64,000 bases of DNA from an uncultured Spirochaetota bacterium (lineage in GTDB: Bacteria; Spirochaetota; Spirochaetia; SZUA-6; Fen-1364). The stretch spans positions 544,001 through 608,000 of the forward strand of contig CAWAHW010000001.1 of assembly GCA_963781885.1 (NCBI GenBank). Reading direction: 5' to 3'. Below are positions 24,144 to 37,695 of the stretch, in pieces (the stretch's first letter is position 1; each line of letters begins with the position of its first letter). The position numbers and the translations under genes are program-made. The notes beneath the pieces were generated by a model. That model did not search any database, was not told where the DNA came from, and saw nothing but the letters and a program-made list of their open reading frames with translations.

Positions 24144-24371
24144 ATGGAATTTTGCATATACTTGGCAAATGGAAAGCCGGGAACTGCCGATGTATTTCTC
24201 TGTGGGGGAAAGTTTACCGTGCGGAAATAGGGCAGCCAGCTCCTGCTGCCACTCGTATTCCTTGACTCCGGCCGGGGCCGTTTGTAGCTTCTCTCACCGG
24301 GAGGGTACAGCCGTCGCCCTGGCGCGCCTCCTGGCCCTCGCCCGGACGTCGAGCGTTCGAGGAGGGTGGTG

Positions 24372-25271
24372 ATGGCAGCACATGCGTCCTGGAAGGGATT
24401 CCTGAAGCTCAGCCTCGTGTCGGTTCCCGTCAAGGCATACACGGCAACGGCCACCGGCAGCGACATCACGCTGCATCAGCTTCACGCGCAGACCCATACC
24501 CGCATCCAGTACAAGAAATTCGCCCCCGAGGTCGGCGAGGTATCGAGCGACCAGATCGTGAAGGGCTACGAATACGACAAGGGCCAGTACGTCATCATCG
24601 ACGAGGATGAGCTGGACAAGCTGCGCACGGAGAACGACAAGGCCATCCGCATCGACGGCTTCATCCCGCCCGACCAGTTGAGCACGGTCTATCTCGGCGG
24701 CAGGACCTACTTCCTGACCCCGGACGGCCCCGTGGGACAGAAGCCGTACAACCTCCTCATGAAAGGGATGGAAAAGGCGGGCCTCTGCGCCATCGCGGAA
24801 GTGGTCATTTCCCAGAAGGAGCAGGTCGTCATGGTGAGGCCCGTCGACGGGGTGCTCGCGATGACGGTGCTCAACCGCAAGGACGAGGTGAAGGCAGCCT
24901 CCGCGTTCAAGGACGAGATCACGGAGACGGAGGCCACGGAGGCGGAGAGATCGCTCGCCGATACCCTCATCCAGGCGTCGATCATCAAGGAGTTTGATTT
25001 CGGCCGCTACCACGACGTCTACAAGGAGAAGCTCACGAAGCTCATCCAGCTGAAGATTGAAGGCAAGGAGGTGGTCCAGGTGCGCGACCCCGAGGAGCCG
25101 AAGATCATCAACCTGATGGAGGCCCTCAAGCGCAGCGTGGAGGAAGCCCAGGCCGCGGGACGCACCGGTGGCGAGGAAAAGAAGAAGGCAAAGGCCGGCC
25201 TGAAGCAGACCGCCAGCGCCAAGCCTGCAAAGACGGTCACGGCTGCGCCGAAGAAGAGGAAGGTTGTCTAA
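24372..25271 (+). CDS. ku: Ku protein (NHEJ end-binding)
   Basis: SWKGFLKLSLVSVPVKAYTAT, RIQY, IVKGYEY, FDFGRYHDVYKEKL, INLMEALKRS and a basic C-terminal tail. Confidence 0.95.
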   Translation: MAAHASWKGFLKLSLVSVPVKAYTATATGSDITLHQLHAQTHTRIQYKKFAPEVGEVSSDQIVKGYEYDKGQYVIIDEDELDKLRTENDKAIRIDGFIPPDQLSTVYLGGRTYFLTPDGPVGQKPYNLLMKGMEKAGLCAIAEVVISQKEQVVMVRPVDGVLAMTVLNRKDEVKAASAFKDEITETEATEAERSLADTLIQASIIKEFDFGRYHDVYKEKLTKLIQLKIEGKEVVQVRDPEEPKIINLMEALKRSVEEAQAAGRTGGEEKKKAKAGLKQTASAKPAKTVTAAPKKRKVV

Positions 25272-26157
25272 GCACCTCCCGCGCCTCGTGCCGCCCATGC
25301 TGGCCGTGATGGGCCAGCCCTTCGATTCGGACACCCATTTCTTCGAGTTCAAGTGGGACGGCTACCGCGCCGTGGCGATGGTGGAGGACGGCGCCGTTCG
25401 CCTGGTGAGCAGGAAGGGCATCGACCTGACGGGTCGCTACCCGGCCCTTGCGCCGCTGGGCACGCTCCCCGCGGGGCTCGCGCTCGACGGGGAGATCGTC
25501 GCCTTTCGCAACGGCGTGCCGAGCTTCGAGCTGGTCGCGCACCACGATCGCGCGGCAACGGAGCCGCTGAAGTTCATTGCGTTCGACATCCTCTATCAAG
25601 CGTTCGAGCCGGTCATGGACCGGCCGTTCACGGAGCGCCGCGCGATGCTGGAGCGCGTGATCGCGGAGTCGCCACGCCCGCCGCTCGTTCTCTCGGAAGG
25701 CGTAGCGGCCACGGGAAAGGCCCTCTTCGAGAGGGCCTGCGTCCAGGGCCTCGAGGGCGTGGTGGCAAAACGGCTGGGGAGCACGTACGCCCCGGGCAAG
25801 AGGAATGGCGCCTGGGTCAAGATCAAGAGGCGTCTCAGCGTCCAGGTCGTCATCATCGGGTATATCGAAAAGGAAGGCCGCGATTTCCAGAGCCTCCTGG
25901 TGGCCTCCAACGGAATCCCGGGCGGCACGGGCGGACCGCTCCTCTACATCGGGAAGGTGGGGGGCGGGTTCACGGACGCAGTACGCGCGGAGCTGAACGC
26001 GCTCCTGCGGGAGCATCCCCGGGCAAAGCCCCTGGTGGCCTGTCCCGAGCGTGGCACATGGGTTGAGCCGGGCCTCTACTGCACGGTAAGCTTTGCAGAG
26101 ATGACCGGGGCCGGCATGCTTCGCGCTCCGGTCTTCGAGGGACTGATACACGCGTAA
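25264..26157 (+). CDS. Stand-alone ATP-dependent DNA ligase (LigD/LigC-type NTase+OB)
   Basis: Motif I EFKWDGYR, III LDGEIV, IIIa AFDIL, IV LEGVVAK, V WVKIK, OB-fold GKVGGGF..LRAPVF. Overlaps the ku stop. Confidence 0.92.
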   Translation: MSKHLPRLVPPMLAVMGQPFDSDTHFFEFKWDGYRAVAMVEDGAVRLVSRKGIDLTGRYPALAPLGTLPAGLALDGEIVAFRNGVPSFELVAHHDRAATEPLKFIAFDILYQAFEPVMDRPFTERRAMLERVIAESPRPPLVLSEGVAATGKALFERACVQGLEGVVAKRLGSTYAPGKRNGAWVKIKRRLSVQVVIIGYIEKEGRDFQSLLVASNGIPGGTGGPLLYIGKVGGGFTDAVRAELNALLREHPRAKPLVACPERGTWVEPGLYCTVSFAEMTGAGMLRAPVFEGLIHA

Positions 26158-26163
26158 GGACCG

Positions 26164-27354
26164 ATGGACACCACACCGTTGACGGGGGCAGAGGTCGCCC
26201 TGACAGGTCGTCTTCTCTCCATGACGCGCGCGCAGGCCGTGAAGCTCCTGCAGCAGGCGGGAGCGCGGCACGCGCGCGAGCCCGGCGCGTCCACCGCGCT
26301 GCTCGTGGCCGGGGAGGCCATCGGCAACCTCACCTCGGACGGCCGGATATCGCACAGCCTCGAGCTGTTCCGGCAGCTGAAGAGGCAGGGCAGCGCCATC
26401 CGCCTGGTGGAGGAGACGGAGTTCCTCCGCCTGCTGGGCGCGCAGGACTCGCTCGCCGACATCTCCCGGCTGTACACCGCTGAGCAGGTGAGCCGCATCG
26501 TGGAGGCGCCGCTTTCCGAGGTGCGCGCCTGGGTGCGCAAAGGCCTGCTCCAGCCGGCCCGGCAGCACAACCGGCTTGCCTGGTTCGAGTTCAAGAACAT
26601 CGTTCAGGCGCGCAACCTGAGCAGGCTCACCGCTTCAGGCGTACCGGCATCGCAGATCCACAGGAGCCTGTCGGAGATCGCGCGCTGGCTGCCCGACGGT
26701 GAGCGCATCATCGGCCGGCTGGAGGCCTACGCGCGCGGCCTGCGTGTGAGGCTTCCCGATGGCGGGCTCGCCGAGCCCAGCGGGCAGCGCCTCATGGATT
26801 TCCAGCGCAGCGGCAGGGGCGATGCGAGCCTCCAAGAGGTGAGGCGGGTATCGGTCTTTCCGTCCGAGGTTGCCGCGCCGCCGAAAGCCGGCACGCCTTC
26901 TGCCGCGGACTGGCGCGCTGCTGCCGAAGAGGCCGAGGAGCAAGGCGACCTCGGCGCGGCCGCGCTGGGCTATGCGCGGGCGGTTGCGGACGCACCCGAC
27001 GCGGAGACATTCTTCGACCTGGGCAATGTCCTCTACGAGCTGGGCAGGGAGGGGGAGGCGGCGGAGCGCTACTTGCAGGCCATCCAGCTCGAGCACGACT
27101 TCGCCGAGGCGTGGAACAACCTGGGCAACGCGCTCGTGGCGCTCCGCAAGCTGGAGGACGGCGTGCGCGCCTACGAGATGGCGCTTGCCCTGGAGCCCGG
27201 CTATCCCGACGCGCACTGCAATCTTGCCACCGTTCTGGAACGGCTGGGTCTCTCAGAGAAAGCCATGGCCCACCGGGGCGCCTGCCTGCGCGGGCTTCCT
27301 AGCGAAGCGCATCTCAGCCTGCTGCGCCAGCCGGCACGCGCTGACGAGGATTAG
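26164..27354 (+). CDS. BRCT + MerR-type HTH + TPR protein
   Basis: LigA-type BRCT (LTGAEVALTGRLLSMTRAQAVKLLQQAGA..LLVAGE..EETEFLRLL), MerR-like YTAEQVSRIV..VRAWVRKGLLQP, and TPRs FDLGNVLYELG / AWNNLGNAL / AHCNLA. Confidence 0.8.
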   Translation: MDTTPLTGAEVALTGRLLSMTRAQAVKLLQQAGARHAREPGASTALLVAGEAIGNLTSDGRISHSLELFRQLKRQGSAIRLVEETEFLRLLGAQDSLADISRLYTAEQVSRIVEAPLSEVRAWVRKGLLQPARQHNRLAWFEFKNIVQARNLSRLTASGVPASQIHRSLSEIARWLPDGERIIGRLEAYARGLRVRLPDGGLAEPSGQRLMDFQRSGRGDASLQEVRRVSVFPSEVAAPPKAGTPSAADWRAAAEEAEEQGDLGAAALGYARAVADAPDAETFFDLGNVLYELGREGEAAERYLQAIQLEHDFAEAWNNLGNALVALRKLEDGVRAYEMALALEPGYPDAHCNLATVLERLGLSEKAMAHRGACLRGLPSEAHLSLLRQPARADED

Positions 27355-30928: not shown

Positions 30929-33900
30929 TCAACATGGTCCTGGTGTCGCGATCTCTTTCGCCATCTCACGGTAGCGACACAGGCCATTTGCCCACCGCAT
31001 CTGCTCGGGCGTGCTGCATTCCGGCTCCAGGAGGCGGCGCGCCGCCACAAGGATGCATACGCACTGGGCGCGGCTGGTGGCCACGTTCAACCGGTTTGGA
31101 TTGAAGAGGAAACCCATGCCGCGAGGCGCGTCGATGGCGGAGGAGCTTGCCATCGAATAGATGACCACGGGAGCTTCCTGGCCCTGGAACTTGTCCACGG
31201 TTCCCACGCGGAGCGCGGGAAGACGGGCCGAAAGCGCCGCCACCTGCGCGTTGTAGGGCGCCACGACTAGTATGTCGGATGCGTGCAGCCTGCGCGCCGT
31301 GCCGTGCGAATCGGTCCACGTCACGTCGGGTGAGAGAAGGCTCTCCGCAATGGCCGCGATTGCCGCCACCTCCTCCGGAGAGCTGTTCTGATTGCCTTCG
31401 TGGTCCACGGGCACGTAGAAAAGGCCGCTGCCGGCAAAGGGCGTATCACCGTTGATGGCCTGTCGCTCCAGCCCCGCGCGGGAACGGAGCCGGCCTTCGT
31501 AGAAAAGCTCGGAGGTGAACGCGCATATGCGGGGGTGCAGCCTCCAGGTCTCGTCGAGGAAAAGCCCCGCCTCATCGGCAAGCGTCTTCCGCCCCTCCAG
31601 CACGTGCACAAGAGCCGCCACCTCCGCACCTTCGGGATGCGCGCCGCGCTGGGGCTGCTCGAGCTGCTGCGGGTCGCCCAGGAGAACGAGGTTGCGCGCG
31701 GACCTCGCAGCGGCGAGCGCGAACGCCAGCGACATCTGTCCTGCCTCATCGATGAAGAGGTAATCCACCGATTCGATCATGTCGTCCCGGGCCCAGAACC
31801 AGCAGGTTCCGCCGACCACCTTGCCCTGGCCGAGCCCTGCCGCTGCCTTTTCGTTCTTGTCCGTCTCTTCGACGCCCGGCGTCTTTTCCACGCCCCGCTT
31901 GCTCACCTTGTGAATGGCAGCCACGGGCGCACCTGCGGGGGCCGCGCGGACGACCTGCTCCAGGAAGTGCCTGATCACCTTGTGACTGACAGCCGTGACC
32001 CCAATGCGCTTTCCGGCGGTCGCGAGGGCGACGATCATCCGCGCGCCCGTGTACGTCTTTCCCGTCCCGGGCGGCCCCTGCACCGGCAGCACCCCGTTGT
32101 CCAGGTCCCGGGCAAGGCGAATGGCCGCATCCACCAGGTTCTCCCCCGACCGCCGGAGCGCGCCCTGCGCGGGTGTGCGAAGCCGCGGCTTCCTCTTCAG
32201 GAGCAGGTCCCGGGCGGCGCGATAAGGCCCGTTGCCGTTCACGCCGCGGCGCGCGCTGGACACGCCGAGCTCCAGCAGCGCCTTGTCCACGGGCCGCGGC
32301 GGCACCCTTTCGTTCACCATGACGGCAAAGGGATGCCGGTCCGCGGTTGACGGCCTCCGTTCGATGTCGATCGTGCCGTCTGCAAGATCCAGCGCGCTCA
32401 CCTTCCCGATGACGCCGCCGCCGATCTCGTAAAGCTCGTCTCCGTCGCCGAAGGCAGCCTCCTGCGCGGGAAAGGCGTAGCGGTGCACGGGTGATCGCGC
32501 GCTGCCGCCGACGGCCTGGAGAAAGCGCAGACCGGAAATGGCCTTTCGTTCCTCCATGAGCTCCTCGTGATCGAGGCCGTGGATCCGGAAGAACTCCCAC
32601 CACGCGCACTTGTCCTCGCGGCGGAAATATTCGAGCTGGTGCGCAAGGAGCCATTGCCCCCGATGCTCCTCTCCCCATTCTTCGCGATCGTCGGGAAGCG
32701 CGCCGGTCAATTCCTCAAAAGCGGCCTTCACCTCCCCGGCCTGCTCCGCCACCGCCTCGCTTGCCTCACCGGTCTTCTCTTCAGGCCGGGGCACGCGCCG
32801 TCCTTTTGCCGCCCATTCCTCCCGGCGCTCCTCCAGCCATGCCTGGAGCGCGGCGGTTGCCCGGCAGTCATCGCAGTTGTAGGACTCCACCGCGTCGCGG
32901 TCGGAGGCGAAAATCTCCAGGTCCGCCGTGCCGGGTGCAAGCTCCAGCACGCGCGCGATCCTGCGGAGCGCCTGGCCTGCCGCGCGAAGCTCCAGGGACC
33001 GGTGAAATGCAAATGCCGGCTCGAGCGACTTCAGCGAATAGCTTTCCACGCTGACCCGCATGCCTTGCCGCGTCACGGCGAGCAGGTCCACGAACTTTTC
33101 CGCGCGCAGCAGACGGTCCAGCTCCTCCTCCCGTATGCCGTGCCGGCCGATCATCCTTTTCACCGCGCCGGGCTCGTACGGCGAGAAGTGGTAGATGTGC
33201 ATGCCGGGGTGCCCCCGCCATCTGTCCATGACAAAATCCATGATCTCTTCGAGGGCCTTTTTTTCTTCCGCCATGGTGAAGGCCCAGAGCGGCCGATAGG
33301 ACAGGACGCCGTCCGGTGCGACGAATGCCACGCCGAGCAGGTATTCCAGGCCTGTCTCCAGGGCAAAGGGATCCGACTCGATATCGAACCAGATGTCACC
33401 CGGATCCGGCGCGGGCAGGAGCGCCAGCCCCTTGCCAGGCTCGATCGGCAGGAGCTCGTGGAGGATGCGGCCCGCTTCCCGTCCGGCAAGCTGGATGCGC
33501 GCCTGGCCGTGCACGCGCGCGAATGCCTCATCGCTTCCCCGCGCCGGCTTGCGGCGAAACGGCGCCGGCTCCCGCGCGAGCTTCTCCAGCGTGCCGATGC
33601 CTTGCTGCTCGAGCTCGGCAATATGGAGCGGACGGATGCCGGCAACGAGGCAGAGGTGATCGTCGGCGTGCCGGCGCGCATCGCACTCCTTCCACCACCG
33701 GCAGACGTCGCAATGCGCCACGGGGTAGGGGTAGGTGGCTGCCGGTGCGGCGGCCACGGTCTGCTCCAGTCTTCGCTTGACCAGGCGGCAGTACGCGCTG
33801 TAGTCGCTGAAGCGAAAGCTTTCCCGGACAAAATCCTGGCCCGGCTTTATCACGTGCATGTGCTCGGGAGGCAGCCCCTGCAGGTATCCCACAAGCTCCG

Positions 33901-34351
33901 AGTAGAGGCAGAGCTGCAGCACCGTACCCGCGCGTGTCTCCTGCGCCAGCTTTGTATCGGCAACCTCGTAGGACCAGTCACCCAGGTTGCTCGGCCTTGG
34001 CACGCGCAGCAGGAGGTCCGCGCGGCCGACCCATCGTCCCTCGCCAAGCTGGGCCTGCACGATGGCTCCAGCCCCCGCGGCCATGGCGTTCCGGGTCCTT
34101 TCAAGCGACGTTGCGACGGCGTCCGCGGGGAGCTCCACGACCTCGACGCCGCTTTTTTTCAGATGCTCCACGTACGCCCGTTCATGGATGGCGCCCCGTT
34201 GCCGCAAGAGCTCCACGCTTGGATCCATCCACGACGGGGCCGCGATGCGCCGCTCTGCAACGGCGCGGTCGAGCTGCGTGAGGTGACGGCAGGCCAGATG
34301 GTTGGCGATGTCGGTCGCGGACAGAAAGAGCTCTCCGCCCTCCACGTGCAT
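30929..34351 (-). CDS. TM0106-family RecB-like nuclease + RNase H-fold exonuclease + SF1B (Dna2/UPF1-like) helicase
   Basis: LSATDIANHLAC, GRADLL..YEVADTKLA, QLCLYS, HCDVCRWWKEC, WFDIESDP..YNCDDC, QGPPGTGKT, IDEAGQ, GDPQQL, TVDKFQGQEA, NRLNVATSRA. RBS AGGAG before 34351. Confidence 0.88.
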   Translation of the reverse strand: MHVEGGELFLSATDIANHLACRHLTQLDRAVAERRIAAPSWMDPSVELLRQRGAIHERAYVEHLKKSGVEVVELPADAVATSLERTRNAMAAGAGAIVQAQLGEGRWVGRADLLLRVPRPSNLGDWSYEVADTKLAQETRAGTVLQLCLYSELVGYLQGLPPEHMHVIKPGQDFVRESFRFSDYSAYCRLVKRRLEQTVAAAPAATYPYPVAHCDVCRWWKECDARRHADDHLCLVAGIRPLHIAELEQQGIGTLEKLAREPAPFRRKPARGSDEAFARVHGQARIQLAGREAGRILHELLPIEPGKGLALLPAPDPGDIWFDIESDPFALETGLEYLLGVAFVAPDGVLSYRPLWAFTMAEEKKALEEIMDFVMDRWRGHPGMHIYHFSPYEPGAVKRMIGRHGIREEELDRLLRAEKFVDLLAVTRQGMRVSVESYSLKSLEPAFAFHRSLELRAAGQALRRIARVLELAPGTADLEIFASDRDAVESYNCDDCRATAALQAWLEERREEWAAKGRRVPRPEEKTGEASEAVAEQAGEVKAAFEELTGALPDDREEWGEEHRGQWLLAHQLEYFRREDKCAWWEFFRIHGLDHEELMEERKAISGLRFLQAVGGSARSPVHRYAFPAQEAAFGDGDELYEIGGGVIGKVSALDLADGTIDIERRPSTADRHPFAVMVNERVPPRPVDKALLELGVSSARRGVNGNGPYRAARDLLLKRKPRLRTPAQGALRRSGENLVDAAIRLARDLDNGVLPVQGPPGTGKTYTGARMIVALATAGKRIGVTAVSHKVIRHFLEQVVRAAPAGAPVAAIHKVSKRGVEKTPGVEETDKNEKAAAGLGQGKVVGGTCWFWARDDMIESVDYLFIDEAGQMSLAFALAAARSARNLVLLGDPQQLEQPQRGAHPEGAEVAALVHVLEGRKTLADEAGLFLDETWRLHPRICAFTSELFYEGRLRSRAGLERQAINGDTPFAGSGLFYVPVDHEGNQNSSPEEVAAIAAIAESLLSPDVTWTDSHGTARRLHASDILVVAPYNAQVAALSARLPALRVGTVDKFQGQEAPVVIYSMASSSAIDAPRGMGFLFNPNRLNVATSRAQCVCILVAARRLLEPECSTPEQMRWANGLCRYREMAKEIATPGPC

Positions 34352-34364
34352 GGCCTGTCTCCTT

Positions 34365-36398
34365 CTACGACTGCAGGAGCTTTTCCAGCGCCTTGATGCC
34401 CCGACCGAGGTCCTGGGGGTTTGCCTGCGCGGTGCGGAAGAGGTCTCCCGTCCGCTCGATGCGCGCGGCGGCGTTTGCAAGCGTGAAATCCGCGACGTGC
34501 AGCTCCCCTTCCAGCTCGTCCCATGCCAGCGGCATGGAAACCGAGGCAGCCTCAACGGGCCGCACGACGTAAGGCGGCACCACGGTCTGTTCGCGCCGGT
34601 TCTGCAGGAAATCGATATAGACGCGGCCGGCCCGGCGGCCCACGACGCGCTCCACCGTGGCGATGTCCCCGTGATCGCGCACGACCATGCGGGCAATCGT
34701 CTCGCAGAACATCCTGCTCTGATCGTAGGTGAAGCCGGGCGTGAGCGGGATGCACACGTGCAGCCCCGACGAGCCCGAGGTCTTCAGGTATGGCTCGATG
34801 CCGATGCCGCGGAGCAGCTTGCCGACCACCCGCGCAATCTTCACGACGTCCGTGAAAGGCGCCTCCTTGGGATCGAGGTCCAGGATGGCCCAGTCCGGCG
34901 ATTCGAGGCTGTCCGTGCGTGACAGCCAGGGGTGCAGGTCGATGCTGCCCGCGTTGACGAGCGTGAGGAGGGCCTTGCGGTCGTTGCAGACCGCGTACAG
35001 GGTCGGCTCCTCACCATCCCGCGCAACGTCCACCGTTTCGCACTGGTCCAGCAGCTCCGGCGGGAGCTGCTTCTGATAAAAGGATTTACCGCGAATCCCG
35101 TCCGGCCACCGGTAGAGGTGCAGCGGGCGATCCTCCAGGTACGGCAGCAGCCAGTTCGCGACCCGGTCGTAGTAGCGCGCGAGATCCCCTTTCGTGTAGC
35201 CCTGTTCCGGCCAGTAGACCTTGCGCGGATGCGTGATGGCGACGCCCGTCGGCGCGTCCTTTTTCTGGGACCGCTTCTTTGCCGGCGTCTTTGGCTTCAT
35301 GCCCGGCACCACGCGCACCCTCTGCCAATCCTCCGATACTCCAGAACGATAGGGACTGTCCGCGCGCTTGGCGATGATGCCCGGCAGACCCGATTGCGCC
35401 GCGGCGTCCGCAAAAGCCAGGCCGTGCTCTGCCACCGGGTCGACCGTCAGGACGCGGCCGGATTCCGGCACGAGGGACCGGAGCACCGCCTTGCGCTCGC
35501 GTAGGGGCAGGCGCGTGAGGTCCCACTCTTCTGCATAGAGGATGTCGAAAAGGTAGAGCACCGCGTGCGCGCCACCGGATCGCAGCTCTTCTTCCAGCGC
35601 CGCCTCGGTGGGAACGCCGCGCGCGTCCATTGCCACGATGACCCCGTCCAGGAGCGCCGTGCCGGCGCGCACCGCGGCCAGCCCTGCGGCAAGCGCAGGC
35701 AGCCGGGGCGCAAGATCTTCCTTCTTCGTGCGGAGGCTGACCGTGGAGTCCTGGACGCGCGCCAGGACGCGCCGGCCGGCAAAGAGAGGCTCGAAGAGCC
35801 ACGCGGGGTCGTCAAACGCCCCCGCGCGGTCCGCCGGCTCCATGCGCGCGCGGCCGCGGGGCGCGGCCTTCTGCCGCGCAAGGCTCATGTCCGCGGCGCC
35901 GAAGAGGTCGCTGCCGGATCCGGCGTAGCGGTCGCGCGCCTTGAAGAGCAGCCAGTTCCTGCCGTCGCCGGTCTTCGTGCGCACCATGTGCCATTCCCCG
36001 CGCAGGTGCCGGCCCTTCAGCTCAAGCTTCAGCTCGCCCTTTTCCAGCGCCGCGGCGATCGTCGGTGATTTGCGCACCTCGTACACCCCGGCGTCCCAGA
36101 TGCGCATCGTGCCGGCGCCGTACTGGCCCTTGGGGATGGGACCTTCGAAGTCCCGGTACAGAAGCGGGTGGTCCTCCGTGCGCACGGCGAGCCTCTTGTC
36201 CCCGGGCGCATAGGAGAAGCCCTTCGGCACGGCCCAGCAGGCAAGTACGCCATTTGCCTGGATGCGCAGGTCATAGTGCAGGTTGCGCGCCTCGTGGCGA
36301 TGGACGACGAATGCGTTTCCTTTGGCGCCGCGTTTCCCCGGCCGCGGCTCGGGGGTCTTCCTGAAGTCGCGCTTGCCGCGATAATCATCCATCGCCAT
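34365..36398 (-). CDS. ligD: LigD-like protein: phosphoesterase + degenerate ligase + primase-polymerase
   Basis: PE domain (HRHEARNLHYDLR, WAVPKG, TEDHP..Y..FEG.IP.GQYGAG) and Pol domain (DLDP, KTSGSSGLHV, YIDFLQN). The central ligase-like domain lacks KxDG. Confidence 0.9.
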   Translation of the reverse strand: MAMDDYRGKRDFRKTPEPRPGKRGAKGNAFVVHRHEARNLHYDLRIQANGVLACWAVPKGFSYAPGDKRLAVRTEDHPLLYRDFEGPIPKGQYGAGTMRIWDAGVYEVRKSPTIAAALEKGELKLELKGRHLRGEWHMVRTKTGDGRNWLLFKARDRYAGSGSDLFGAADMSLARQKAAPRGRARMEPADRAGAFDDPAWLFEPLFAGRRVLARVQDSTVSLRTKKEDLAPRLPALAAGLAAVRAGTALLDGVIVAMDARGVPTEAALEEELRSGGAHAVLYLFDILYAEEWDLTRLPLRERKAVLRSLVPESGRVLTVDPVAEHGLAFADAAAQSGLPGIIAKRADSPYRSGVSEDWQRVRVVPGMKPKTPAKKRSQKKDAPTGVAITHPRKVYWPEQGYTKGDLARYYDRVANWLLPYLEDRPLHLYRWPDGIRGKSFYQKQLPPELLDQCETVDVARDGEEPTLYAVCNDRKALLTLVNAGSIDLHPWLSRTDSLESPDWAILDLDPKEAPFTDVVKIARVVGKLLRGIGIEPYLKTSGSSGLHVCIPLTPGFTYDQSRMFCETIARMVVRDHGDIATVERVVGRRAGRVYIDFLQNRREQTVVPPYVVRPVEAASVSMPLAWDELEGELHVADFTLANAAARIERTGDLFRTAQANPQDLGRGIKALEKLLQS

Positions 36399-36427: not shown

Positions 36428-37057
36428 GTGAGCGACATACCTGTTCTTGTCGATGAGCCGCGCGCGGGAAAGACGATCGCCACGATCGTGCTTGCGCATG
36501 GGGCAGGGGCGGCCATGGATTCGGACTTCATGGAGGACGTCGCCCACGCCCTTGCCGCGGAGTCGCTGCGGGTCGTCCGCTTCGAGTTCCCCTACATGCG
36601 GGAGAAGCGGGAAACGGGGAGACGGGGGCCGCCGGATCCCACGGCCGTGCTGGAGGAGACCTGGCTTTCCGTGATCGCGCAGCTCGGGACGCAGACGAAG
36701 CTCGTGATCGGCGGCAAATCAATGGGGGGCAGGATCGCCAGCATGATCGCGGACACGGCGGCGGTGCATGGCCTTGTCTGCATGGGTTATCCGTTCCACC
36801 CCACCGGCCGGCCTACAAGCCTGCGCGTCTCCCATTTGAAGGACCTGAAGACGCCCACACTGATCCTGCAGGGCGAGCGCGACACACTCGGGAGCCGCGA
36901 CGAGATTGCCGGCTACGTCTTGTCGTCGAGAATACGCCTGTCCTTTCTTCCCGACGGCGACCATTCCTTCAAGCCTCGAAAGAGCTCGGGTCGTACTTAT
37001 GAGCAGAATCTTGCGGAGGCTGTAAGAGAGACCGTGGCTTTTTGCAGAAATCTGTAG
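36428..37057 (+). CDS. Alpha/beta hydrolase (KANL3/Tex30-like)
   Basis: LAHGAGAAMDS, RFEFPYM, GGKSMGGRIAS, QGERD, DGDHSF. Confidence 0.88.
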   Translation: MSDIPVLVDEPRAGKTIATIVLAHGAGAAMDSDFMEDVAHALAAESLRVVRFEFPYMREKRETGRRGPPDPTAVLEETWLSVIAQLGTQTKLVIGGKSMGGRIASMIADTAAVHGLVCMGYPFHPTGRPTSLRVSHLKDLKTPTLILQGERDTLGSRDEIAGYVLSSRIRLSFLPDGDHSFKPRKSSGRTYEQNLAEAVRETVAFCRNL

Positions 37058-37077
37058 CTTTGGTGTTGATATTGCAT

Positions 37078-37105
37078 GTTAACGGTGTTACAGTAACGAT
37101 GTTAC
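37078..37105 (+). promoter_or_regulatory. Tandem TAAC-N3-GTTA operators upstream of tetR
   Basis: GTTAACGGTGTTAC and GTAACGATGTTAC. The same motif recurs at 37716. Confidence 0.65.
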
Positions 37106-37116
37106 GGAAGCTGAGA

Positions 37117-37695
37117 ATGACTAGAGCAGCCAATATCGACCTTGCGGCAAGAATCCTCGCAGAGGCAGAGAAAGTCGTCGTGGCATCCGGCCACGAAGGC
37201 ATAAACATGAGGCGGCTTGCCAGCCAAGTCGGCGTGAGCGCAACATCGATCTACCGCTACTATGAGAGCAAGGAAGCGATACTCAGGAAACTGAGGATAA
37301 AGGCCGCGGAAAAGCTCAACGACAGGATAAGGTCGATAGATTCCCGCCTCCCTGCGCACGAGTTCCTTCACGAGCTGGGCCGGCAGTATGTCGCCTATGC
37401 GCAGGAAAATCCGCAGATGTACCGCATGCTCTTCGAAGCGCCATTTGACGAGCGCGGCGAGGCGGAGGATCACCCGGTGCTCTATTACACCTACCTCGCG
37501 GCGCGTGGCGCGCTTGAAAAGGCATCGAAAGAGAGCTTGAAAGAGGTTGATCCGGGACTCCAAGCCATGATGGGCTGGATCTTGCTGCATGGCTTTTGCT
37601 CGCTCATGATGTCGGGAATGCTTCCCCCTGCGGAGGGCATGAGCCGGGAAAAGCTGCAGGAAGTCTTCATGCGTTTTTATTCGGAGGGCAAGTGA
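37117..37695 (+). CDS. TetR/AcrR family regulator
   Basis: HTH INMRRLASQVGVSATSIYRYYESKEAI and a WHG-like C-terminus (WILLHG). Confidence 0.9.
   Translation: MTRAANIDLAARILAEAEKVVVASGHEGINMRRLASQVGVSATSIYRYYESKEAILRKLRIKAAEKLNDRIRSIDSRLPAHEFLHELGRQYVAYAQENPQMYRMLFEAPFDERGEAEDHPVLYYTYLAARGALEKASKESLKEVDPGLQAMMGWILLHGFCSLMMSGMLPPAEGMSREKLQEVFMRFYSEGK

Follow-up and report, generated by a model that had tools for sequence, protein, structure and literature searches.

Domain organization of psi-LigD

[quoted passage not shown] Its 677-residue frame is uninterrupted according to the list of open reading frames and their translations, and the product, designated psi-LigD, comprises a 3′-phosphoesterase (PE) domain, a ligase-type nucleotidyltransferase (NTase) domain that lacks the ligase catalytic residues, a basic linker and a primase-polymerase (Pol) domain (Table 1). 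The domain order is that of the Pseudomonas aeruginosa-type LigD (PE-Lig-Pol).

In Pfam, LigD_N (PE, PF13298) matches residues 33-140 with 134 bits, DNA_ligase_A_M (PF01068) matches residues 198-359 with 46.7 bits against a cut-off of 26.2, and LigD_Prim-Pol (PF21686) matches residues 402-654 with 276 bits; there is no Pfam match in psi-LigD to DNA_ligase_A_C (PF04679), the oligonucleotide-binding (OB) domain of DNA ligases. The cut-offs of TIGR02777 (PE domain; 193.5 bits against 144) and TIGR02778 (Pol domain; 241.6 bits against 214.7) are passed. TIGR02779 (NHEJ ligase domain), a model of 302 positions that spans the NTase and OB domains, is missed with 109.8 against 227.75 bits, and only its positions 9-183 are matched. 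The whole-LigD equivalog TIGR02776 (NHEJ_ligase_prk) is narrowly missed (361.1 against 373.2 bits, in two stretches), and the protein also falls below PRK05972 (558 against 895) and PRK09632 (414 against 989). Because these defining features were tested and not found, psi-LigD is regarded as a LigD derivative that stands outside the LigD equivalog and outside the ligase enzyme class.

Alignment of the Pol domain to the NHEJ polymerases 5dmu, 2fao and 2iru revealed that DLDP, SGxxGLHV and YIDFLQN (YxDFLQN) are retained; the DxD pair and the third Asp are what we take to be the catalytic aspartates. The PE domain, aligned to that of P. aeruginosa LigD (2lj6 and 3n9b), keeps H-x-H...H-Y-D-x-R and E-D-H-P-x-x-Y, motifs with the His, Asp, Arg, His and Tyr that bind metal and phosphate, the catalytic residues being assigned with the help of a review (PMC8656161). 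The solved domains used in the two alignments are of P. aeruginosa, mycobacterial and archaeal origin. The catalytic His, Asp and Arg columns of PE and Pol are unvarying in 12 diverse psi-LigDs. The linker that takes the place of the OB domain (residues ~364-392) has eight Lys/Arg residues against one Asp/Glu, and its net charge is positive in 18 of 19 aligned rows (the window protein and 18 orthologues); it is otherwise unconserved, with a mean identity of 0.34 and a median ratio of nonsynonymous to synonymous substitution rates (dN/dS) of 0.58. A preliminary description of this DNA had held that PE and Pol are intact, that the structural segments of the ligase domain persist without a stop or frameshift and that a Lys-rich linker has replaced the OB domain, and all of this is borne out by the family scores, the retained motifs (including FDILY, motif IIIa, in the ligase domain), the open frame and the composition of the linker.

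Table 1. Features of the window that bear on psi-LigD and its surroundings
Feature	Position	Strand	Basis
psi-LigD gene: PE, dead ligase NTase domain, basic linker, Pol	34365..36398	-	Pfam and NCBIfam
3′-phosphoesterase (PE), residues 1-165, active-site motifs kept	35904..36398	-	PF13298, TIGR02777, alignment
Pseudo-ligase (psi-NTase) domain, residues 195-365	35304..35816	-	Motif loss, AlphaFold2 model, Foldseek, dN/dS
Lys/Arg-rich linker at the place of the OB domain, residues 366-393	35220..35303	-	No PF04679 match; charge
Primase-polymerase (Pol), residues 394-677, catalytic motifs kept	34368..35219	-	PF21686, TIGR02778, alignment
Ku	24366..25271	+	PF02735, 152 bits; TIGR02772, 254 bits against 150
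Stand-alone LigD-type ATP-dependent ligase, 297 residues, NTase and OB	25264..26157	+	PF01068, 103.7 bits; PF04679, 61.5 bits
MerR-type helix-turn-helix and TPR protein, third gene of the Ku-ligase cluster	26164..27354	+	Pfam MerR_1 and TPR families
Nuclease-helicase, ~1129 residues, directly downstream of psi-LigD	30929..34318	-	RNase_H_2/RecB-like nuclease; superfamily-1 helicase (AAA_11, AAA_12)
Abhydrolase_11 hydrolase, upstream of psi-LigD and divergent	36428..37057	+	
TetR-family regulator, upstream of psi-LigD and divergent	37042..37695	+	

Loss of the ligase active site

A phmmer comparison with solved structures placed residues 198-353 on the ligase domain of Mycobacterium tuberculosis LigD (1vs0, 6nhx and 6nhz), with E-values of ~1e-10 to 1e-11. 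Motif I, WAFEGKWDGYR in the M. tuberculosis enzyme, reads WLFEPLFAGRR in the window, the Lys being replaced by Leu205 and the Asp by Ala207 with the Gly and Arg kept. In motif III (LDGEAV against LDGVIV) the Glu has become Val253, in motif IV (WEGVIAKR against LPGIIAKR) the Glu has become Pro339 with the motif IV Lys kept, and in motif V the W-x-K-x-K consensus of live enzymes is WQRVR, both Lys residues being replaced by Arg (Arg360 and Arg362). Motif IIIa (FDLLY against FDILY) is kept. The loss of catalytic residues from motifs I, III, IV and V and the position of EPLFAG (35775-35792, residues 203-208) had been given correctly in the preliminary description. In these losses, together with that of the OB domain, psi-LigD departs from the P. 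aeruginosa-type LigD, with which its PE and Pol motifs align.

A column-by-column comparison of 131 live with 71 dead ligase domains showed the motif I Lys to be 100% conserved among the live ones and identified 12 positions that are 86-100% conserved in live enzymes and all substituted in the dead clade. Within the motifs these are Lys and Asp (I), Glu (III), Glu-Gly (IV) and the two Lys residues (V); the others are an Arg that follows motif I, a Phe and a Gln in the stretch from motif III to IIIa, a Gly that follows IIIa and an Arg that precedes motif V. Residues of the fold core and some of the adenine pocket are retained (W200, E203, G208, R210, D251-G252, F284-D285, R302, K344, Y350 and W358). 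According to the accessible text of PMC8656161, Glu613Ala and Lys637Ala each abolish nick sealing by M. tuberculosis LigD; Glu613 corresponds to Pro339 by the offset of the structure alignment, and Lys637, which lies past the end of that alignment, would by inference correspond to Arg362 of motif V. Because the adenylate-accepting Lys, the metal- and phosphate-binding residues and the OB domain are all gone, psi-LigD is expected to be capable of neither self-adenylation nor ligation. Residues D522, K579 and L580 of the M. tuberculosis ligase domain, reported as Ku contacts in the part of PMC13717202 available, fall by hand alignment on Ala245, Ala304 and Val305, a match from which we draw nothing.

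Distribution and ancestry of the dead domain

The motif I Lys is absent from all 20 aligned rows (the window protein and 19 orthologues). A genome search detected psi-LigD in 17 of the 20 other genomes that belong to this genus, the three without a match being 84-96% complete, and in 23 of the 41 genomes searched when the window's own is counted, some of them from two other families of the same order. In a collection of 5.8 billion proteins, domain scores are 122-332 bits for the 55 closest relatives (P0002-P0056), 103 bits for a relative with canonical motifs that comes next, and 96 bits or less for canonical LigDs with an OB domain. Motif I is covered in 53 of these 55, and the Lys is absent from every one of the 53; the carriers are labelled uncultured Spirochaetota or Spirochaetia and come from several independent projects. 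Retention of KxDG in close homologues, which the preliminary description had named as evidence against its own reading, was thus not encountered.

An exhaustive HMMER scan with the psi-domain alone returned 9845 matches at E<=1e-3. Of the best 150 representatives, 144 have an alignment of 150 residues or more that includes motif I; the Lys is missing from 27 of these, and one or more of the K/D/E/E residues from 35. All ten long distant representatives consist of PE, NTase and Pol with no OB domain, one of them being labelled Phycisphaerales, and further psi-LigD loci are labelled Planctomycetota (L042 and L058) and Acidobacteria or Vicinamibacteria (L060, L061 and L099); the taxonomic labels of these metagenome-assembled genomes were taken as given. 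The Planctomycetota- and Acidobacteria-labelled domains have their nearest relatives within the dead group described next.

Trees were built from 92 of 222 eligible NTase rows after removal of the six trait columns. They included all 39 non-spirochaete dead rows (window included), random draws of 12 from the 52 dead rows of the spirochaete clade and of 40 from the 130 live rows, and the stand-alone ligase of the window; these were quick trees with SH-aLRT support in place of bootstrapping, and no root was inferred. The window domain falls inside a group of 33 rows, all dead, with SH-aLRT support of 99 (LG+G4) and 96 (LG+C20+F+G4), suggesting that the inactivation is ancient and goes back to one old event common to a clade labelled Spirochaetota, Planctomycetota and Acidobacteriota. 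The whole tree requires 9-10 state changes, which points to other independent inactivations among LigD-type ligases.

Degenerate forms were also seen apart from this clade. The domains P0071, P0074, P0102, P0110, P0119, P0171, P0172, P0207, P0223 and P0225, which lie among live ones in the tree, have partly or fully degenerate motifs, and some of them keep the Lys yet lack the Asp or Glu residues, a pattern that suggests repeated inactivation. Three loci labelled Pseudonocardia (L062-L064) have ~220 residues between the PE and Pol matches; in L062 these residues partly match the second half of the psi-domain only, and the three may represent another degenerate LigD form in Actinomycetota. Among the orthologues of psi-LigD itself there are broken frames: in L034 (= G017:C339) a TAG codon, in frame and located where the dead domain ends, separates a PE-psiLig frame from a Pol frame, and L020/L045 (G003) contains TGA stops and a frame change. 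These breaks could be assembly errors, pseudogenes or natural splits.

Selection on the domain and its predicted fold

Values of dN/dS were calculated by the Nei-Gojobori method. The values for all 171 pairs are partly saturated and affected by high G+C content, and the argument therefore rests on the four closest independent pairs, which are unsaturated and non-overlapping (whole-gene dS 0.39-0.61); L034, L042 and L044 were excluded from the codon set for having no single long frame under a crude filter. In the four pairs the dead domain gave 0.270, 0.164, 0.157 and 0.105 (bootstrap upper bounds 0.44, 0.28, 0.25 and 0.18) and Pol gave 0.112, 0.067, 0.060 and 0.043, while the linker gave 0.36-0.81 where measurable. 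The NTase domain of the live stand-alone ligase gave 0.200, 0.160 and 0.061 in three of the pairs, a matching range from which it follows that the dead domain is about as constrained as a working one. The dead domain is under purifying selection, and the neutral evolution that the preliminary description had listed as a possible objection is not seen. A set of residues is conserved only in the dead clade (R244-A245, P263, E290-E291-W292, R307, P311 and A330); VRA and AEEWD are among the stretches concerned.

An AlphaFold2 model of the domain from a 33-row alignment reached a mean predicted local distance difference test (pLDDT) score of 91.4, with values dropping under 60 where the modelled stretch ends; it replaced a whole-protein model made without an alignment (pLDDT 37.6), which was discarded. 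Foldseek placed ATP-dependent DNA ligases at the top of its matches to the model (TMq 0.70-0.79; M. tuberculosis LigD 6nhx, TMq 0.72), so that the ligase NTase fold is confidently predicted to be kept.

The stand-alone ligase and its linkage to Ku

The stand-alone ligase gene of the window begins within the last eight bases of the Ku gene. Its product retains all catalytic residues (signature KDEEKK), as had been described for the ligase at 25264, and has both the NTase and OB domains; on TIGR02779 it scores 223.8 bits, slightly below the cut-off of 227.75. The psi-domain and this ligase are the only two PF01068 matches in the genome, which is 92.55% complete and was covered in all but 16,000 bases.

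Among 24 psi-LigD loci of the spirochaete clade in named assemblies, 19 have the stand-alone ligase and the MerR/TPR gene within 10 kb of psi-LigD, usually in the layout Ku-ligase-MerR/TPR and convergent on psi-LigD; in the five loci without the ligase the downstream flank is at most ~1.7 kb. Ku is present in 13 of the 19 ligase-bearing loci and lies ~5 kb past the ligase in three more genomes; a further genome (G012) gave no Ku, and loci L028 and L031 stop at the ligase. A Ku-ligase pair is encoded elsewhere in the genome in four of five non-spirochaete psi-LigD genomes. None of five control genomes with a canonical LigD contained a short stand-alone ligase frame, all their PF01068 matches lying in frames of at least 538 residues; this control is small and non-independent and is based on frame length rather than on adjacency to Ku. 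The loss of the Lys thus tracks a Ku-linked stand-alone ligase, a correlation that the preliminary description had named as a check. Structure prediction for a complex of the dead domain with the stand-alone ligase gave a score of 0.00 in two runs, to which we attach no weight either way.

The MerR/TPR gene stands beside the ligase in all 19 ligase-bearing loci and in the Planctomycetota-labelled locus L138. The first ~90 residues of its product have a weak match to BRCT (E 0.0058; 17.3 bits, under the cut-off of 21.3), and the protein may be an unrecognized NHEJ accessory factor or a regulator.

Proposed role of psi-LigD in end joining

We propose that psi-LigD is, in all probability, a LigD-derived end-processing protein whose dead ligase module is kept for a non-catalytic role and whose partner seals in trans. 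The analysis supports the reading of the preliminary description, in which a selected pseudo-enzyme, serving as a scaffold or DNA-binding spacer, would be complemented in trans. Its PE and Pol domains, apparently catalytically competent, would heal the ends of a break; the central ligase module would have turned into a non-catalytic pseudo-enzyme domain that keeps the NTase fold and has lost the OB domain; and the intact LigD-type ligase whose gene immediately follows that of Ku would seal the strands in trans. The co-occurrence of that ligase with Ku and psi-LigD makes it the most likely sealing enzyme.

As to what the dead domain contributes, we lean tentatively toward a surface on which DNA ends or Ku/ligase dock and which links the healing of ends to their sealing; it could instead be, with somewhat less in its favor, a rigid structural spacer that fixes the geometry of PE and Pol, and a nucleotide-binding sensor is a doubtful third option. 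A fuller scheme, conceivable though short of probable, has the AEEWD and VRA patches, the adenine-pocket residues and the linker binding a 5′ end, the C-terminus of Ku, the ligase or a nucleotide, and such binding would time the hand-off from PE/Pol healing to sealing. The dead domain would then be a pseudo-enzyme regulator, a type of non-catalytic module new to end joining in bacteria, and would mark out a distinct NHEJ architecture spanning several phyla and built from three proteins (Ku, ligase and psi-LigD), to which the BRCT-like MerR/TPR protein might add a fourth part.

Several observations weigh against this proposal. That psi-LigD is inactive as a ligase and that the second ligase acts in trans are both deduced from sequence, and the genome-wide count of PF01068 matches is that of an incomplete genome searched short of its full length. 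Ku was not found in G012, a 97% complete genome, and in G041, the fifth of the non-spirochaete psi-LigD genomes, for which no completeness is given, no match to Ku or to a further ligase was seen; beyond the spirochaete clade psi-LigD adjoins neither of the two genes. The dead domain evolves two to three times faster than Pol (dN/dS 0.10-0.27 against 0.04-0.11). Three related orthologues (L032, L035 and L038) have all lost ~20 residues, in frame, from the stretch that separates motif III from motif IIIa, and the Acidobacteriota-labelled L060, L061 and L099 have in addition lost the motif III Asp and changed the motif IV Lys to Arg. A locus labelled Pyrinomonadaceae (L091:3022-4701, plus strand) encodes PE and Pol in one frame with no NTase remnant, joined by a low-complexity linker of ~110 residues rich in Lys, Arg, Gly and Ala; a weaker ligase-like match lies ~1.6 kb upstream on the opposite strand (E 1e-14, 29% identity, query residues 94-288).

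L091 resembles psi-LigD in carrying PE and Pol in one frame with a basic, Gly-containing linker and differs in having no NTase-like domain; it shows that PE and Pol can be fused without one, and its layout is likely the end state of the same trend. These erosion cases, with the deletions and further motif losses as intermediates and the plain linker as the end, support the idea that the domain is a passive relic, an inert spacer fold between PE and Pol that has no function of its own and is slowly wearing down to a linker, and its faster evolution relative to Pol points the same way. Pure decay nevertheless seems unlikely to us, since dN/dS in the dead domain matches that of the active ligase NTase in the same pairs, with no upper bound above 0.44, and since the clade has conserved surface-type residues of its own (AEEWD and VRA) that are unconserved in live ligases and has kept the domain across lineages labelled as three phyla. 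An excision-repair-type function, in which psi-LigD fills gaps or cleans 3′ ends outside Ku-dependent end joining and independently of the Ku-ligase pair, would suit its separation from Ku and the ligase outside the spirochaete clade and the nuclease-helicase gene that is next on the same strand in the window, and the available text of PMC5663958 reports a mycobacterial LigC/Prim-PolC complex in base excision repair. We consider this rather improbable, for the ligase cluster lies close to psi-LigD, often directly convergent with it, in 19 of the 24 spirochaete-clade loci, and the activities of Ku, ligase and psi-LigD add up to precisely the set known from canonical NHEJ.

It is hardly credible that the domain remains active, as a ligase or adenylyltransferase, by means of another nucleophile. 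The pocket does retain Gly and Arg of motif I and the Glu that precedes this motif, Phe-Asp of motif IIIa and Lys of motif IV, but no conserved Lys substitute exists, the motif I position being L, A, S, E, V, C, Q or R. Seven residues that bind metal and phosphate (Asp, Glu, Glu, Arg, Arg, Lys and Lys) have disappeared jointly, and there is no OB domain, which step 1 and the clamping of DNA require. A sequencing error or strain-specific lesion in a normal LigD has next to no chance of being the cause: the same substitutions recur in independent assemblies of many studies, and the consistent absence of the Lys from orthologues and closest relatives refutes it.

Relation to known NHEJ systems

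The engineered ligase-defective LigD of mycobacteria is reported to be a laboratory point mutant with its OB domain intact. psi-LigD is comparable to such engineered proteins in that polymerase and nuclease functions are kept and another ATP-dependent ligase would seal; in the mycobacterial case, the accessible text of PMC5663958 states that LigC sealed ~20% of double-strand breaks in a strain with mutated LigD ligase function. Unlike them, psi-LigD is natural, conserved and ancient, and its putative partner ligase is encoded with Ku. The arrangement also recalls the split archaeal and bacterial NHEJ sets with separate Ku, ligase, Pol and PE proteins, of which Methanocella is an example, where sealing falls to a stand-alone LigD-type ligase beside Ku, as is proposed here; it differs from them in that one protein still holds both PE and Pol, with the dead ligase domain kept between the two. 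Organisms with NHEJ domains in separate proteins have been termed 'non-conventional NHEJ' in the part of the survey 10.1101/869602 at hand. Eukaryotic DNA ligase IV, for which the available text of PMC3549972 describes an end-synapsis role in NHEJ that is independent of catalysis, differs from psi-LigD in being still an active enzyme, in its lineage and in its partners.

A full-text literature search outside subscription journals and supplements, which took in passages of the reviews PMC8656161 and PMC7470946 and of the NHEJ survey 10.1101/869602, turned up no account of a LigD whose ligase domain is dead in nature. We rate psi-LigD as a case, with no published account found, of a conserved pseudo-ligase domain inside a repair multi-enzyme whose ligation appears to be outsourced. 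The usual picture of NHEJ in bacteria is one of two proteins, with LigD as the sealing enzyme, and a sizeable, old clade annotated 'non-homologous end-joining DNA ligase' or 'LigD' is very probably unable to ligate. Surveys of NHEJ by domain presence alone would misclassify its members; the terms 'active site', 'lysine' and 'catalytic residue' are all absent from the survey text of 10.1101/869602, and the portion available holds no active-site check. The clade offers a natural experiment on non-catalytic roles of ligase domains, which have otherwise been approached through engineered mycobacterial mutants and eukaryotic ligase IV. The graded series from full LigD through a dead NTase domain without OB to a plain basic linker can likewise be used to ask what the module contributes apart from chemistry.

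Other genes next to psi-LigD

The hydrolase and TetR-family regulator genes upstream of psi-LigD have no evident link to the finding described here. To judge from the spacing, the nuclease-helicase gene directly downstream looks like a lineage-specific insertion, since most related loci have far less DNA separating psi-LigD from the MerR/TPR gene.

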